A DNA stretch of 64,000 bases. Origin: an uncultured Mycoplasmatota bacterium. GTDB taxonomy: Bacteria; Bacillota_I; Bacilli_A; RF39; UBA660. Every line of letters starts with the position of its first letter. Within the stretch, counting starts at the first letter, position 1. The notes beneath the pieces were generated by a model. It searched no databases, was not told where the DNA came from, and worked only from the letters and a program-made list of their open reading frames with translations. Location of the stretch: the NCBI GenBank assembly GCA_900548725.1, contig URLV01000004.1, positions 162 to 64,161 on the forward strand, read 5' to 3'. Positions 7,590 through 53,588 of the stretch are shown here, piece by piece. The position numbers and the translations under genes were made by a program.

Positions 7590-9155
7590 TTATTTTGCTA
7601 TTTCTTCTGCTCTAGTTTCTCTAATAACAGTTATCTTAATTATACCAGGATATTGCATTTCGTTTTCTATTTTTTCTTTTATATCTCTAGCAACTTTAAG
7701 ACTTGTTAAATCGTCAATTTCTTCAGGTTTAACAATAACTCTAACTTCTCTACCAGCTTGCATAGCATAAGTTTTTTCTACACCCGGGAAACTATTTCCA
7801 ATACTTTCTAATTGTTCAAGTCTCTTAATATAATTTTCCATAGAATCACTTCTAGCACCCGGTCTAGCAGCAGATAAAGTATCCGCAATTTGAGCAATTA
7901 TTGCAATAACACTTTTTGGCTCTGTATCTCCATGATGTGATGCAATTGCATTAATAACTACTTTATCTTCATGATATTTTTTAGCAATATCAACACCAAT
8001 GTCTACATGACTACCTTCTATTTCATAATCTATTGATTTTCCTATATCATGCAACAATCCAGCTCTCTTAGCTAAGTTTATATTTTCACCTAATTCACTT
8101 GCAATTAAACCTGATAAATGAGCAACTTCTTTAGAATGTTGTAAAGCATTTTGTCCATAACTTGTTCTATAATTTAATTTACCAATCAAATTTACTAACT
8201 CTGGATCAAACTTAGTTAATCCTAATTCTACTATAGCATCATTACCAAGTTCCATAGTTTTAGCATTAATATCTTTACAAGTTTTATCATAAATTTCTTC
8301 AATTCTAGTAGGATGTATTCTTCCATCTTTAATTAAAGTTTCAATAGTTACTTTAGCAATCTCTCTTCTATAAGGGTCAAAAGAAGATACTACTATAGCT
8401 TCTGGTGTATCATCAATAATTAAATCTACTCCAGTAACAGCCTCTATAGTTCTAATATTTCTTCCTTCTCTACCAATTAGTCTTCCTTTCATATCATCAT
8501 TAGGTAAACTAATTGTAGTAACTGTTTGTAAATTAGTAACATCATTTGAATATCTTTGCATACTATTTACAAGTAAATTTTTTGCTTTTTTATCAACTTC
8601 AAGTTTAGCTTCTGCTTCTTTCTCTTTAATATACTCAGCAATTTCTCTTGACATATCATTTTCTACTCTTTCAAATATTTGTTTATGTGCTTGTTCTTTA
8701 GAAAATTTTGCTATATCTTCTAATTTTTCCATTTCTTGTTTCAAAAGTTCATCCATTTTTAACTCTTTATCTTGGATTTGTTTTCTTAAAGCATTTAAAT
8801 TATTATCTTTTTCCACTAGTCTATTATCTCTATCTTGTAACATTTCTTCTCTTTTATCTAAAGATTTTTCTCTATTTAACAATCTATCTTCACTAGCAAG
8901 AATTTCTTTTTTTCTTTCTTTTATTTCTTTATCAGTTTCACTTTTTAATTTATAACTTTCTTCTTTTAATTCTAAAAGTGTATCTCTTTTATGCTTTTCA
9001 GCTTCTTTTTTAGCATCAGCCAATAATTTTTCTGCTTTTTTACCTGCCCCAGCACCAGTTTTTACAACTACAACGTAAACGCCAGCACCTCCAGCAAATA
9101 AACCAATTATAAGAGTTATTATGGAAGCTGTCGTTAATCCCATAATTTCCTCCAT
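7590..9155 (-). CDS. rny: ribonuclease Y
   Basis: N-terminal TM, coiled coil, KH (GREGRNIR) and HD (LLHDIGK) domains. The start may be Met5 (9143), which follows a GGAGG. Confidence 0.95.
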   Translation of the reverse strand: MEEIMGLTTASIITLIIGLFAGGAGVYVVVVKTGAGAGKKAEKLLADAKKEAEKHKRDTLLELKEESYKLKSETDKEIKERKKEILASEDRLLNREKSLDKREEMLQDRDNRLVEKDNNLNALRKQIQDKELKMDELLKQEMEKLEDIAKFSKEQAHKQIFERVENDMSREIAEYIKEKEAEAKLEVDKKAKNLLVNSMQRYSNDVTNLQTVTTISLPNDDMKGRLIGREGRNIRTIEAVTGVDLIIDDTPEAIVVSSFDPYRREIAKVTIETLIKDGRIHPTRIEEIYDKTCKDINAKTMELGNDAIVELGLTKFDPELVNLIGKLNYRTSYGQNALQHSKEVAHLSGLIASELGENINLAKRAGLLHDIGKSIDYEIEGSHVDIGVDIAKKYHEDKVVINAIASHHGDTEPKSVIAIIAQIADTLSAARPGARSDSMENYIKRLEQLESIGNSFPGVEKTYAMQAGREVRVIVKPEEIDDLTSLKVARDIKEKIENEMQYPGIIKITVIRETRAEEIAK

Positions 9156-9403
9156 CTATCTAATAAATAATTTTATACTTTTAATTACTTATACATTTAT
9201 TATAAAATTAAAATACTCATTTTGCAAGAAATAATTATTGTCCCACAAAATTGAGTATTAATTTATGACATATTTTTAGAAGTTTTGTCGAATCGCTTTA
9301 TTTATATTTAAAAATTATATAGTATAACTAATCGAACGTTCATGTTGGTGTTAACCTACTAACTGAGATTCTTTTTGAATGCGTAGGAAGTAGGTGGTAA
9401 TAT

Positions 9404-9478
9404 ATGTTCAAAAATTTAGAAAAATTATTGAATAGAATTATTATTATTTTAATACTACGCCTTTTAAATAAAAACTAA
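9404..9478 (+). CDS. 24-aa hydrophobic peptide, putative type I toxin (module A)
   Basis: MFKNLEKLLNRIIIILILRLLNKN preceded by an AGGTGG SD. The SD-containing AGTAGGT can pair with upstream AACCTACT (9353-9360) and downstream ACCTACTT (9573-9580). Confidence 0.45.
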   Translation: MFKNLEKLLNRIIIILILRLLNKN

Positions 9479-9481
9479 TTA

Positions 9482-9576
9482 AAATAAAAAAGACATCAGC
9501 CGAAACTCAGTTAGGGCCGATGCCTCCCCAATACCAGGGTAAGCATCCAACTATCAGGGGGTTGAACGCTCAACCT
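9482..9576 (-). ncRNA. convergent antisense RNA, putative type I antitoxin (module A)
   Basis: Minus strand TTGACA (9606-9611), 17 nt, TATTAT (9583-9588). GC-rich hairpin 9494-9522 followed by a T-run ending just past the peptide stop codon. Confidence 0.45.
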
Positions 9577-9620
9577 ACTTAAATAATAGCATTTGATATA
9601 GAATGTGTCAAATGTTTTTA

Positions 9621-9655
9621 TAACAAAAAAATGACAAAAAATTAAGCTTTGTCAT
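9621..9655 (-). terminator. terminator overlapping the recA stop (bidirectional)
   Basis: ATGACAAA..TTTGTCAT stem with T-runs on both strands. Confidence 0.6.
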
Positions 9656-10679
9656 TTTTTTTAGTGTCTTTATCTTTTTCTAAATCATAATGTACTCTAA
9701 TTTTATGTTCTATTTCATCCATAATTTTAGGATTATTTTCTAAATATAATTTAGCATTTTCACGCCCTTGACCAATTTTTTCTCCATTATATGAATACCA
9801 AGCACCACTTTTTTCAACAACATCAATATTACTACCAATATCAATTATTTCACCAGATTTAGAAACACCTTTACCATACATAATATCAACAGTTGTAGTT
9901 TTAAATGGAGGAGCAACTTTATTTTTAACAACTTTAATATTAGTTTTATTACCAATTATAGTATCTCCCATTTTAATTTGTTCTCCACGTCTAATATCTA
10001 ATCTTATAGTAGAATAAAATTTTAAAGCTCTACCTCCTGGAGTAGTTTCTGGATTACCAAACATAACTCCTACTTTTTCTCTTAATTGATTAATAAATAT
10101 TGCAGTAGTATTAGTTTTATTTATAGTACCACTTAATTTTCTAAGTGCTTGACTCATAAGTCTTGCTTGTAAACCTACATGACTATCTCCCATTTCTCCT
10201 TCAATTTCTGCCTGTGGAACAAGTGCTGCTACAGAATCTATTACGACAACACTAACTGCACCGCTTCTAACCAAAGCTTCACATATTTCTAAAGCCTGTT
10301 CTCCAGTATCAGGTTGAGAAAGTAATAACTCATCTATATTAACACCTAATTGTTTTGAATAAACAGGGTCAAGTGCATGTTCTGCATCAATAAATGCTGC
10401 TCTTCCCCCAGCCTTTTGTACTTCTGCAACTGCTTGTAATGCAATAGTAGTTTTACCGCTACTTTCAGGTCCATAAATTTCTATTATTCTTCCCTTTGGA
10501 AATCCACCAACACCTAAAGCAATATCCAATCCTAATGAACCACTAGAAGTTGTTGCAATTTCCATATGTTCGTTTCCACCAAGTTTCATAATAGAACCCT
10601 TTCCAAATTGTTTTTCAATATCAGCTAAAACTTGTTCTAAAGCCTTATCTTTATCTGCTACGTCTTTAATAGTTTTCAT
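9642..10679 (-). CDS. recA: recombinase RecA
   Basis: GPESSGKTT Walker A and a full-length RecA-like sequence. Start moved to MKTIKD.. (10679) behind an AAGGAG SD. Confidence 0.97.
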
Positions 10680-12881: not shown

Positions 12882-13012
12882 AAAACACCTCTACAAACAT
12901 GTAATAAAATACTAAATATATTATAATATCAAATGAGTTACTTAAGCTAGGTACTTTTAACCTCTTTAAACAATTTGTGGAAGGAGGTGGTCCTATGGAA
13001 AGAAAAAAATAA

Positions 13013-13078
13013 ATGGATTACTTAGTAATCTTAGTAGTGATATTAATACTGCTTAAAATACTTTTCAACAAGGATTAA
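13013..13078 (+). CDS. 21-aa hydrophobic peptide, putative type I toxin (module B)
   Basis: MDYLVILVVILILLKILFNKD. A GGAGGTGG SD serves a 5-codon leader (12995-13012, MERKK) whose TAA stop abuts this ATG. TATAAT at 12922-12927. Upstream ACCTC can sequester the SD. Confidence 0.45.
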   Translation: MDYLVILVVILILLKILFNKD

Positions 13079-13198
13079 AAAAATAGGTACCAAACTCATT
13101 TAGGTACCCACAGAACAAATTGGACTGAAAGTACTTAACGACGAATATTAAGTAACTCTTTTTTTGTCCAAAAATATTATATGATAGAAATTCCTATC
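13077..13198 (-). ncRNA. convergent antisense RNA, putative type I antitoxin (module B)
   Basis: Minus strand TTGATT (13227-13232), 16 nt, TATAAT (13205-13210). GGTACC..GGTACC hairpin (13086-13108) plus a T7 run ending at the peptide stop codon. Confidence 0.45.
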
Positions 13199-13321
13199 AC
13201 CTAGATTATAACACAACATTCTAAAAAATCAAATTAAGTTGTGTCTCGATATCAAAACACTATTATCATAAATATTATATTTCATTAATTTTAATTTATT
13301 ATAATAAAAAGATTAAAACAA

Positions 13322-13462
13322 AAAATAGACTACCACATTGTGATAGCCATACAACCTAACGTTCACTGTATTCGACGTGAATCGATACACTCATAAGAGC
13401 ACAATCATTTGTTAAACATTAGGTAAAGATAAAAGCATTTTCGCTCTTATAACCAAATAATA
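13322..13462 (-). ncRNA. candidate small RNA, unknown family
   Basis: GC-enriched island with three minus-strand hairpins. The last, CTATCAC-AAT-GTGGTAG, is followed by TCTATTTTTTGTTTT. No ORF. Promoter weak or uncertain. Confidence 0.25.
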
Positions 13463-13665: not shown

Positions 13666-13743
13666 TGGTCGAGAAGACAGGATTCGAACCTGCGACCCCT
13701 TGGTCCCAAACCAAGTGCACTACCAAGCTGTGCTACTTCTCGA
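13666..13743 (-). tRNA. tRNA-Pro (UGG)
   Basis: Cloverleaf with anticodon loop TTTGGGA, GGTTCGAATCC T-loop and encoded CCA. Hairpin plus T-run terminator at about 13631-13660. Confidence 0.9.
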
Positions 13744-17381: not shown

Positions 17382-17613
17382 TATAAATCACCATTATATA
17401 GTGTTCATCATTAAATCAATTTTATACTAAAAAAACAATTTTATTTTTAATAAATGTTTTCTATTATTTTATATAGATATTTATTGTAATATTAATTTTT
17501 ATATTATATAATTACATCAGAGATACAATTATAGGTGTACCTCCACAATACATATTTATATGTATGAGGAGGTGATGGTATGAAAGCATATAAATTATTT
17601 TCTACATTAAAAA

Positions 17614-17694
17614 ATGGAATACTTAATGGCAGTTGTATTAATACTTTCATTAATTCTTTTCATCATTGTAGTCCTTGCAATCATATTAAAATAA
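17614..17694 (+). CDS. 26-aa hydrophobic peptide, putative type I toxin (module C)
   Basis: MEYLMAVVLILSLILFIIVVLAIILK. TTGTAA (17484-17489), 17 nt, TATAAT (17507-17512). The GGAGGTGA SD (17568-17575) is paired by upstream CCTCC. The SD-proximal ATGs (17575, 17580) are in other frames. Confidence 0.4.
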   Translation: MEYLMAVVLILSLILFIIVVLAIILK

Positions 17695-17792
17695 AGACAA
17701 AAGCACCTATATAATTAGGTGCAAACCACTATGTGGAGATACATCTAAACTAAAATTGTATCTCTTTTTAATTTGACAAGTAAACTTATCAC
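17692..17792 (-). ncRNA. convergent antisense RNA, putative type I antitoxin (module C)
   Basis: Minus strand TTGTAT (17821-17826), 16 nt, TATAAT (17799-17804). GCACCTA..TAGGTGC hairpin (17703-17722) followed by TTTTGTCTTTATTTT next to the peptide stop. Confidence 0.45.
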
Positions 17793-17961
17793 AATTAAAT
17801 TATATCATATTGTATTTAAAATACAAGTATTTTTAATATATAAAGCATAAATTATAAAATACAAAATTAAATACAATACACTATATATTATGTAATAAAC
17901 ACAAATAAATATGTAAAAAGAAAAGTACAATAGTACTTTCTCATGAATAAAAAACAAAAAA

Positions 17962-26365: not shown

Positions 26366-26409
26366 AAATTATATTCCTCTCACCCATATAATATATATTA
26401 TAATAAAAT

Positions 26410-26958
26410 TCAATTATTTTCAAGTAAACGTTCTATAATATTTTTATGTATTATACCATTTCTACTATAATCTATTTTATCCATTGTTAAAACATATTTT
26501 GGATAATTATCATTTACATTATTATAAACACCAAATTCTCTTTTAACAACTTGATCATCAGACAAAATATTAGCAACTTGTATATAAAATTTTTCTTTAA
26601 AATCTTAAACAACAAAATCTATTTCTCTACTATCAGTTTTTCCAATAAAAACATCATATCCTCTAGCAATTAATTCATTATACACAATATTTTCTAATCT
26701 TCCTCCAACTTTTTGTTCCATAAGGTTTTTTTAATTGTAATAAACCTACATCACTAGCATAATTTTTTTTAAAGTTGCCATAACATTTTTGCCTCTCAGT
26801 TTTTATTTTTTCTTTTATTTATAAATTAAATTTCTTTGTGTCCAAAGTAAGATCAACAAAATCATAATCTTCAAAATTAATATAAATCATATGTTTTTGA
26901 TTTGTTTTGCATCAACGCCCCTCTCTTTTAATTCATTTAAGTTCTCTTTTAATCATAA
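26410..26958 (-). pseudogene. decayed AAA-ATPase/DUF4143 family gene
   Basis: Minus strand reads AGGTGA-ATG MIKREL.., then fragments in three frames: ..YINFEDYDF.., ..NYASDVGLL.., MEQKVGGRLENIVYNELIARGYDVFIGKTDSREIDFVV*DFKEKFYIQV..DNYPKYVLTMD... There is an in-frame TAA, and most of the P-loop domain is missing. Confidence 0.65.
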
Positions 26959-27048
26959 AATCACCTAAATAAAATTATCAAAGTCAAAAATTTTTTCGGT
27001 CTACACTCGAAAAACTTTCTGTTTTTTTTAATTTTTTTCGACTGAAAA

Positions 27049-34451: not shown

Positions 34452-34521
34452 CATAAAAAGATATCAAATTAAAGATATTTTTTTATTTGACAACAATAAT
34501 ATATGATGTTAAAATCTTATG

Positions 34522-34602
34522 TAAGTAGAACATTTATTTATTAAATGTCCTACCTTGTTGGTTATGACATTTGTACTTTATAGTACTATGTCATTTTTAT
34601 TT
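34522..34602 (+). ncRNA. convergent antisense RNA, putative type I antitoxin (module D)
   Basis: TTGACA (34487-34492), 17 nt, TAAAAT (34510-34515). ATGACA..GTACT..AGTAC..TGTCAT hairpin (34564-34594) followed by TTTTTATTT. Overlaps the 3' end of the minus-strand peptide ORF. Confidence 0.45.
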
Positions 34603-34709
34603 ACCAAACCCCCGATATAGTTAATCTTAAAAAAAGAATATATAATTTTAATAAAAAATATAATAATTATTCTATCCAATATTTCTAAAATAAATGAATA
34701 AAACTTCAT
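34578..34709 (-). CDS. 43-aa hydrophobic peptide, putative type I toxin (module D)
   Basis: MKFYSFILEILDRIIIIFFIKIIYSFFKINYIGGLVNKNDIVL with an AAGGGAG SD. Shares L(N/D)RIIII with the module A peptide. 5' AGAACATTTA (34758-34767) is complementary to 3' TAAATGTTCT (34529-34538). Confidence 0.4.
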   Translation of the reverse strand: MKFYSFILEILDRIIIIFFIKIIYSFFKINYIGGLVNKNDIVL

Positions 34710-34837
34710 AATTATTACTCCCTTCATACTTAAATATAAAAGGCAAGACATAAACAATAAATGTTCTGATTATATATACAATACTAAAACATATAAGTAT
34801 TTCGTCGAATAAAATCACATATAAAAAAATATGTTAA

Positions 34838-53348: not shown

Positions 53349-53579
53349 ATGTATTATAATAATTACGGGATACAAAACCCAAATGAAGATAGACAATTTT
53401 TCGTACCATTTTTATTAGGTGGACTTGCAGGAGCTGGATTAGTAGGAGTATCACGCCCAAGACCAGTATATGTAAATTCACCAAACCAATACCCATATCA
53501 ACCTTACCAACCTTATTATAATAATCCATACTATAGACCAAGTGGATATTATAATTATTCTTCTGGAGGATATTATTAA
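53349..53579 (+). CDS. 76-aa Tyr/Pro/Asn/Gly-rich protein with a central hydrophobic segment
   Basis: GAGAGGAG SD. ..FFVPFLLGGLAGAGLVGV.. flanked by YYNN/QYPYQPYQPYYNNPYY repeats. Confidence 0.5.
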   Translation: MYYNNYGIQNPNEDRQFFVPFLLGGLAGAGLVGVSRPRPVYVNSPNQYPYQPYQPYYNNPYYRPSGYYNYSSGGYY

Positions 53580-53588
53580 TATCTTCTT

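Follow-up and report, generated by a model that had tools for sequence, protein, structure and literature searches.

A candidate type I toxin-antitoxin-like unit between rny and recA

The spacer between rny and recA in contig URLV01000004.1 of an uncultured member of the Bacilli, which was analyzed here as part of a 64-kb stretch of DNA (hereafter, the window), carries a compact unit, referred to as module A, that probably represents a new type I toxin-antitoxin (TA)-like family. On the plus strand, module A contains an open reading frame (ORF) of 24 codons preceded by a strong Shine-Dalgarno (SD) region, and on the minus strand it contains the promoter and terminator of a convergent small RNA that is complementary to the 3' untranslated region (UTR) of the putative mRNA. 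The elements of module A and their combination are real, clearly non-random, and far beyond what is expected by chance. We are fairly confident that module A is at least a genuine sense/antisense RNA pair around a translated small ORF, and, by analogy with the bsrG/SR4 system, we rate slightly above even the prospect that it is a working type I TA pair with a bsrG/SR4-like architecture.

Regarding the plus strand, the initial annotation had described a TATAAC hexamer, an SD region, two segments capable of masking this region (anti-SD1 and anti-SD2), the 24-codon ORF, and complementary 5' and 3' segments, and each of these was found in place. The -10-like hexamer TATAAC (9323-9328, plus strand) of the putative toxin mRNA, which was read from the sequence, is weak with no recognizable -35 element, and was not picked up by a promoter scan. 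It is followed after approximately 7 nucleotides (nt) by the start of a long 5'-3' helix, a spacing that is common to module A and to modules B and C described below. The predicted transcription unit has a length of approximately 290 nt (approximately 9334-9620) from the hexamer to a terminator-like hairpin, with both ends being predicted. The 5' arm of the long closing helix (9334-9368, plus strand), which resembles P1 of the bsrG mRNA, holds anti-SD1 (AACCTACT, 9353-9360, with the heptamer starting at 9354), and the 3' arm (9505-9572, plus strand) is located in the 3' UTR, wholly under the antisense RNA. These two arms pair almost continuously with an energy of -29.2 kcal/mol (RNAduplex), and none of 400 random segments reached this value in a null distribution of random 42-mers of the window (-11.4 +/- 4.7 kcal/mol). 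The complementary 5'/3' segments TAACTGAG/CTCAGTTA and GAACGTTCA/TGAACGCTC were present as listed in the initial annotation.

The SD region (AGTAGGTGG, 9389-9397, plus strand) binds the anti-SD of the 16S rRNA with -7.1 kcal/mol, which ranked 4th among the 78 intergenic small ORFs, the 1st and 2nd ranks being taken by modules C and D. It leads the ORF MFKNLEKLLNRIIIILILRLLNKN (9404-9478, plus strand), which starts with ATG, stops with TAA, and encodes a cationic peptide of 24 residues with a hydrophobic core of approximately 10 residues. Both anti-SD segments were able to pair with the SD, as had been claimed: the duplex with anti-SD1 has an energy of -10.2 kcal/mol and that with anti-SD2 (ACCTACTT, 9573-9580, plus strand) an energy of -11.6 kcal/mol. 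The ACCTACT heptamer occurs eight times on the plus strand of the 64 kb, two of which are within this unit of 250 nt, and the window contains two copies of AGTAGGT. Pairing between the SD and anti-SD1 is part of the minimum-energy fold of the majority haplotype. The unit is closed by a terminator-like hairpin with a U-run (9588-9619, plus strand; -13.5 kcal/mol, z -4.95), in which the promoter of the antisense RNA is embedded.

This antisense promoter (TTGACA-17-TGnTATTAT, 9583-9611, minus strand) agrees with the hexamers previously noted; it matches the consensus at 11 of 12 positions, carries a TG extension, and is near consensus and much stronger than the sense promoter. The putative antitoxin is a small RNA of approximately 93 nt (9484-9576, minus strand), the ends of which were inferred from the positions of the promoter and terminator, and which comprises a 12-bp 5' hairpin and a terminator hairpin. 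The intrinsic terminator that had been proposed as a hairpin plus T-run was located at approximately 9482-9524 (minus strand), with a 10-bp GC-rich stem followed by U6AU4 (-21 kcal/mol, z -4.0); it was missed by a simple terminator scan because its loop is larger than 8 nt. The small RNA is fully complementary to the 3' UTR of the mRNA, and its U-tract stops approximately 5 nt short of the TAA that terminates the ORF, as anticipated for an antisense RNA that covers the 3' UTR and ends a few nt from the stop codon. The segment 9485-9582 is the sole island with a GC content of at least 50% in the window besides tRNAs and the RNase P RNA. The fold of the small RNA is markedly asymmetric between strands, the minus strand giving -40.6 kcal/mol (z -4.5) and the plus strand only -24.8 kcal/mol (z -2.05). 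Since the stems of the small RNA hold several G.U pairs, the fold of the plus strand is weaker, and this asymmetry argues for the minus-strand RNA as the structured product. Pairing of the small RNA with the 5' part of the mRNA was no better than chance, with 118 of 300 shuffles being as good.

Similarities to and differences from known type I systems

The initial annotation had assigned module A to the 3'-overlapping convergent layout of the bsrG/SR4 class, and this assignment holds, with the closing helix and the anti-SD matching point by point. In the bsrG mRNA, which is 296 nt long, helix P1 is formed between nt 1-35 and nt 232-262 directly upstream of the terminator, and the convergent SR4 RNA pairs with the 3' part of bsrG, including the 3' arm of P1 (PMC3834814). 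Formation of the bsrG/SR4 complex renders nt 1-33 single-stranded and extends the SD helix from 4 to 8 bp, and SR4 both blocks translation and promotes decay (PMC3834814). Module A shares with this pair, which is encoded by the SPbeta prophage of B. subtilis, a predicted mRNA length of approximately 290-296 nt, the pairing of the first approximately 35 nt with a 3' segment that immediately precedes the terminator of the mRNA, a convergent antisense RNA whose overlap with the 3' end includes the 3' arm of the closing helix, a freed 5' region that can extend the sequestration of the SD, and an antisense promoter that is stronger than the sense promoter. On the other hand, the peptide consists of 24 aa in contrast to the 38 aa of BsrG and has no detectable similarity to BsrG or TxpA, the antisense RNA is approximately 93 nt vs. 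180 nt for SR4 and has no Rfam family, and the host is an uncultured member of the Bacilli with a GC content of 24%, in which the locus is outside a prophage. The overlap in module A stops approximately 5 nt downstream of the stop codon, whereas as-Bsr reaches the ORF (PMC8594479). The structure of the bsrG mRNA has been probed (PMC3834814), whereas that of the module A mRNA is predicted.

In T1TAdb, type I systems are defined by an mRNA of 150-400 nt, a peptide of 20-60 aa, and an antisense RNA of 60-200 nt; in Gram-positive systems, the antisense RNA is located on the 3' side, and in the BsrE-G-H/as-Bsr group it also overlaps the ORF (PMC8594479). Module A is within these ranges, with a predicted mRNA of approximately 290 nt, 24 codons led by a strong SD, and a predicted antisense RNA of approximately 93 nt that has its own promoter and terminator and complementarity to the 3' UTR. 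Fst/RNAII (par of pAD1) and SprA1/SprA1as are similar to module A in being Gram-positive and convergent, with a 3'-side antisense RNA that does not overlap the ORF (PMC8594479). However, their peptides are unrelated to that of module A, and their RNAs interact outside the overlap, at the 5'/SD region, for which module A shows no complementarity above chance. In hok/Sok and AapA1/IsoA1, long-distance 5'-3' pairing also keeps the full-length toxin mRNA inert, and these systems are likewise chromosomal, multi-copy, and patchily distributed; however, they are Gram-negative with unrelated peptides, and their antisense RNAs bind the 5' region once the mRNA has been processed at its 3' end, whereas in module A the 3' arm is covered.

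In view of the near element-for-element match to bsrG/SR4, the same order of events is proposed for module A. By analogy with that pair, both strands would be transcribed, giving a weakly promoted plus-strand mRNA of approximately 290 nt (approximately 9334-9620), from which the 24-residue cationic, hydrophobic, and possibly toxic peptide would be translated, and a strongly promoted convergent minus-strand RNA of approximately 93 nt (approximately 9576-9484) with perfect complementarity to the 3' UTR. As long as the mRNA is free, its first 35 nt and the 3' UTR would form the long closing helix. The capture of the 3' arm by the small RNA would set the 5' arm free, at which point the released anti-SD (ACCUACU) may bind the SD (AGUAGGU), blocking translation, with the RNA duplex of approximately 90 bp being a candidate substrate for RNase III.

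Recurrence of the design in modules B, C, and D

The design of module A is repeated in modules B, C, and D, and was thus found four times in 64 kb. Module B is located at approximately 12930-13232 on the plus strand (peptide MDYLVILVVILILLKILFNKD; 5'-3' helix, -24.7 kcal/mol), module C at approximately 17484-17836 on the plus strand (peptide MEYLMAVVLILSLILFIIVVLAIILK; -33.3 kcal/mol), and module D at approximately 34487-34780 on the minus strand (peptide MKFYSFILEILDRIIIIFFIK...; -29.2 kcal/mol). In each of these, approximately 30 nt after the -10 hexamer pair with the 3' UTR, for which zero or one of 400 random segments was as good, a convergent antisense promoter or terminator adjoins the stop codon, and the 5' arm holds an anti-SD-like stretch that was read by eye. 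One-sided changes in the helices of modules D and B retain pairing (C-G to U.G and vice versa).

The initial annotation had regarded the four modules as paralogous, and, while the repetition of the design stands, their paralogy was not demonstrable by either nucleotide or peptide comparisons. The DNA alignment of the modules was 59% identical, which is the level of the AT-rich background. BLASTP among the module peptides gave no match, including A vs. D, and in a peptide rank test a random antisense ORF outscored D against A; the same was true for B vs. C. Peptide paralogy of the pairs A/D and B/C was not supported on these two grounds. As far as the sequences can be compared, "paralogous" is to be read as "of the same design", homology among the modules not being demonstrable.

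Each of the additional modules has features of its own. In module B, a strong SD (GGAAGGAGGTGG) precedes a 5-codon ORF (MERKK), the stop codon of which overlaps the ATG of a hydrophobic ORF of 21 aa (TAAATG; 13013-13078), which suggests translational coupling, and a convergent promoter, TTGATT-16-TG-TATAAT, is present at 13232-13205. Module B is missing from some strains of the same species (L085 and L089; contigs and loci of the comparative set are referred to by L numbers), and the L088 copy has a mutation in its SD and a frameshift in the leader ORF. Module C contains an SD-led ORF of 44 aa (17580-17714), which was called by the gene caller in L120, and a transmembrane-like ORF of 26 aa (17614-17694), which lacks its own SD and overlaps the former out of frame; either of the two is a candidate product. 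The antisense terminator of module C is located at 17722-17703. The window allele of module D encodes 43 aa only through a 1-nt deletion in a T/A homopolymer, and the peptide is 27-29 aa (MKFYSFILEILDRIIIIFFIKIIYSFFKD) in five other haplotypes (loci L113-L118); the antisense promoter of module D, TTGACA-17-TG-TAAAAT, matches at 11 of 12 positions (34487-34515).

Distribution and strain variation of module A

The comparative set was obtained by a search for RecA followed by the retrieval of contigs encoding each RecA variant. Module A was present only in contigs with 99-100% identical RecA, and two sampled sister lineages (RecA 96%) were without it. The recA-rny spacer of these sisters is 153 nt (L090-L096) or 215 nt (L097-L102), as opposed to approximately 496 nt in the window in this comparison, and spacers in more distant relatives that retain recA and rny as neighbors are likewise short. 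The L090 spacer aligns first to 9131-9254, a segment with the rny promoter, and resumes at the recA terminator (approximately 9638-9664), which places the bounds of the whole accessory island, of approximately 380 bp, at approximately 9255-9637, no counterpart of which was found in the recA-rny spacer of the sampled sister lineages. Judging from these alignments, the island is an accessory element with a patchy distribution, as would be expected of TA cassettes. The GC-rich RNA was also considered as a leader or attenuator of rny, and this was rejected because rny keeps a promoter shared with the sisters downstream of the island. A LexA (Cheo) box at CGAACGTTCA was rejected as well, since the site lacks the 4-nt spacer of the Cheo-box motif, and most haplotypes carry GAGCGTTCA.

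The ORF was intact with 24 codons in all eight full-length contigs, which represent six distinct sequences and four peptide variants. The initial annotation had envisaged that the ORF may be lost from relatives, leaving a purely non-coding RNA; instead, it was kept in every full-length haplotype, and the SD was invariant across all haplotypes. The C-terminal residue is N, D, or G, with the majority allele ending in ...NKD, and one L5S change was found. The ORF of L106 differs by seven conservative replacements and ends with TAG; its C-terminal third has diverged, with nine substitutions in 36 nt, and this pattern suggests recombination with an unseen paralogue.

Sequence variation was also found in the paired elements. 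At 9336, the A of the window gives an A.C mismatch in the closing helix, whereas the G of all other haplotypes gives a G-C pair, and a change at 9353 lengthens the helix that the SD forms with anti-SD1. All haplotypes retained the antisense promoter, with a spacer of 17-18 nt. Across the six haplotypes of the small RNA, 98% of the pair cells were paired, and three one-sided changes retained pairing; in L111, two C-to-U changes result in G.U pairs in the small RNA, whereas the opposite strand would have C.A mismatches. The changes are all one-sided, without two-sided covariation, because the haplotypes are too close to each other. Evidence in the opposite direction is provided by a C-to-G change in anti-SD2 of L107 and by two broken pairs at the bases of stems.

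Natural insertions at the locus

The recA-rny spacer is a hotspot for insertions, and the U-tract of the antisense terminator itself has been hit repeatedly. An IS200/IS605 insertion sequence (IS) of approximately 740 bp is present in this U-tract (approximately 9483-9491) in L106 and, at the break of the contig, in L088. The element in L106 (2621-3360) encodes tnpA only (134 aa; NF033573, 139 bits vs. a cutoff of 55), and the 8-nt sequence TTTTTATT is found on both of its sides. The element lies between the small RNA and the ORF, and in L106 the ORF was found on the far side of the IS, intact and with its SD. The -10 hexamer in L106 has changed from TATAAC to CATAAC (T9323C). In this single case, the change is what would be expected if uncoupling selects for silencing of the toxin gene.

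Other disruptions, in strains with identical RecA, differ in position and in the sequence inserted. In L105 (eight contigs), unrelated sequence starts in the terminator loop at approximately 9509 (L105 2674 to the contig end), and in L111 it starts at approximately 9480, on the stop-codon side of the terminator, and takes the place of the ORF side (from 2989 of L111 up to the contig end). The element in L089, again a different one, directly follows the recA terminator at approximately 9621, beside the small-RNA promoter (3559 to the contig end); by eye, the C terminus of the encoded fragment resembles an IS30-type transposase, the fragment being too short for a family match. The contigs of L105, L111, and L089 end within approximately 150 nt, as expected at repeated elements.

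Alternative explanations

The type I TA-like reading proposed in the initial annotation is upheld with respect to layout, but not with respect to the sequence homology of the four modules, and the pair is uncoupled in natural strains. A number of observations weigh against a working TA pair. The promoter of the plus strand consists of a -10-like hexamer only, and transcription of the unit is predicted. The hydrophobic core of the peptide is only approximately 10 residues, with arginines at both ends, and random ORFs of this 24% GC genome resemble the peptide. Changes in the ORF between haplotypes are nearly all non-synonymous, and the finding of zero indels in the ORF is not significant because approximately 1.4 were expected. 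In L110/L112, the 5'-3' helix is weakened at its outermost part by two uncompensated changes in the 5' arm. Neither the peptide nor the RNA had a homologue in any library searched, so that deep covariation is unavailable and only one-sided changes were observed. Moreover, approximately four of ten contigs of the same species are disrupted (IS200 in L106/L088; L105; L111; and L089); cells tolerate the loss of the arrangement of small RNA and ORF, and the pair is not indispensable as a unit. These disruptions can be read as tolerated loss, which favors a weak or non-toxic product, or as the decay that is well known for chromosomal type I loci. The hok loci of Escherichia coli K-12 have reportedly lost their activity through the insertion of IS elements immediately after the ORF (Pedersen and Gerdes in 1999), to which the IS200 insertion at module A may be likened.

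The former of these two readings leads to an explanation that we consider unlikely, namely that module A is an antisense-regulated small-protein gene or a decayed TA relic, in which the RNAs are real, the peptide is not, or is no longer, toxic, and its control is dispensable. It would account for the frequency with which insertions uncouple or disrupt the small RNA in otherwise identical strains, including L106 with its intact ORF and SD, for the short hydrophobic core, and for the tolerance of C-terminal replacements, and the variable C-terminal length of the module D peptide (27, 29, or 43 aa) and the mutated SD of module B in one strain are in line with it. However, silencing as elaborate as that of module A, with a closing helix, two anti-SDs, and a stronger antisense promoter, is typical of harmful products, and four loci within 64 kb share the design. 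The mutated -10 hexamer of the haplotype that carries the IS is in keeping with a requirement for silencing, and the known type I toxins include peptides as short as 18-30 aa in which the helix contains charged residues, such as Ibs and TisB.

It is a still less probable, quite unlikely explanation that the minus-strand small RNA alone is functional, e.g., as a trans-acting RNA, and that the plus-strand ORF and its pairing are incidental or secondary. The block at approximately 9480-9637 is the best-conserved part of the island, its left-hand neighbor is one of three (the ORF, the IS200 element, or the unrelated sequence in L111), and it has a strong promoter, a strong terminator, and a strand-specific fold, all of which a small RNA acting on its own would explain. 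What it leaves unexplained is the invariant strong SD and ATG with two anti-SDs, the 35-nt 5' segment that is outside the small-RNA gene and yet complementary to it, and the same sense-strand features at three loci of unrelated sequence; the varied left-hand neighbors are most simply regarded as insertions into the terminator, the L106 ORF being found beyond the IS. Another idea, to which we give only a slim chance, is that the small-RNA block (approximately 9480-9637) is an independent, portable unit, the terminator of which is a favored landing site for IS200 and other elements, so that toxin cassettes are shuffled against an unchanging small RNA, and that the small RNA may have a role besides silencing the adjacent ORF, e.g., in trans on paralogous toxin mRNAs, the existence of which is hinted at by the recombinant C terminus of L106.

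The interpretation of the modules as miniature inverted-repeat transposable elements (MITEs) or remnants of IS ends, with their inverted repeats of approximately 30 bp, approximately 240 bp apart, as terminal repeats, is very improbable and was rejected: although all four modules have such repeats (225-250 bp apart), the locus attracts IS elements, and modules are present or absent between strains, the repeats are entirely different among the four modules and lie inside the indel (the helix at 9333-9572 sits approximately 65-80 bp inside the island bounds of approximately 9255-9637), no second copy of module A was found in the window or in approximately 120 fetched loci, changes in the repeats follow the pairing rules of RNA with G.U tolerated on one strand only, and the SD, ORF, promoters, and terminators would be left unexplained.

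Returning to the bsrG/SR4-like TA pair, if the peptide is toxic, module A would belong to a new type I TA family with up to four modules in 64 kb, in a host group of uncultured and very AT-rich gut Bacilli in which ORFs this small are skipped by gene callers. To our knowledge, no type I TA systems have been described in uncultured AT-rich gut Bacilli. If true, the logic of bsrG/SR4 would be a general and independently recurring solution rather than a peculiarity of a Bacillus prophage, and the natural IS-disrupted alleles would represent a ready series for studies on the uncoupling of toxin and antitoxin. The gain is nevertheless incremental, as the class and mechanism are already known and module A is so far a candidate.

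Database searches

The initial annotation had also raised the possibility of a known non-coding RNA family, which was not borne out: no Rfam family was assigned to module A in a search of the window at the gathering score, and E values of up to 10 gave only chance-level matches to unrelated families. No covariance model in Rfam for antitoxin RNA families (RatA, SR4-like, RNAII, SprA1as, Sok, Sib, and others) matched. The four module peptides had no match in Pfam, NCBIfam, PHROGs, or PADLOC, and no match of the peptide to BsrG, BsrE, BsrH, or TxpA was obtained in Pfam/NCBIfam at E values of up to 10. No candidate for the 43-aa peptide of module D was found in a library of 5.8 billion proteins or in a representative library of 1.84 billion.

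Searches at the nucleotide level gave a similar outcome. Blastn of the module against plasmids and phages returned nothing meaningful, exact 20-mers of the small RNA were not found in viral contigs, and blastn of the spacer against 80 RecA loci of GTDB genomes revealed no homologue. A scan of JGI metagenomes with exact patterns gave two chance hits, both in high-GC coding sequences. Look-ups of rny and of the neighbor gene of module C yielded no new haplotypes.

Genomic setting and other observations

Module A occupies a spacer of 486 nt between rny (7590-9143/9155) and recA (9642-10679), both of which are on the minus strand and were assigned by Pfam domains on the called genes. The window has an overall GC content of 24% over its 64 kb and encodes a class B RNase P RNA. 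The RecA of the window is at most 82% identical to that of any GTDB species representative, and the nearest among the GTDB representatives are those of metagenome-assembled genomes (MAGs) of uncultured gut Bacilli and of Candidatus Onthousia. The contig matches scaffold_111 of the human-gut metagenome ENA ERZ28619677.

Some other regions of the window are worth recording. The contig of a public MAG of the same species (L122; NCBI GCA_900771845.1, contig CAAGPJ010000062.1) ends exactly at a tRNA gene (17965); this end adjoins module C and may be another assembly break or insertion site. A region between module B and the tRNA at 13669-13742 (13300-13450) is locally GC-richer and hairpin-rich, with no Rfam match. 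A stretch of 683 nt (26366-27048) with genes on both sides has no ORF of at least 90 aa and is possibly a degraded gene. A small ORF on the plus strand at 53350-53580 encodes a Tyr/Pro/Asn/Gly-rich product (MYYNNYGIQNPNEDRQFFVPFLLGGLAGAG...YYRPSGYYNYSSGGYY) with a central hydrophobic segment.

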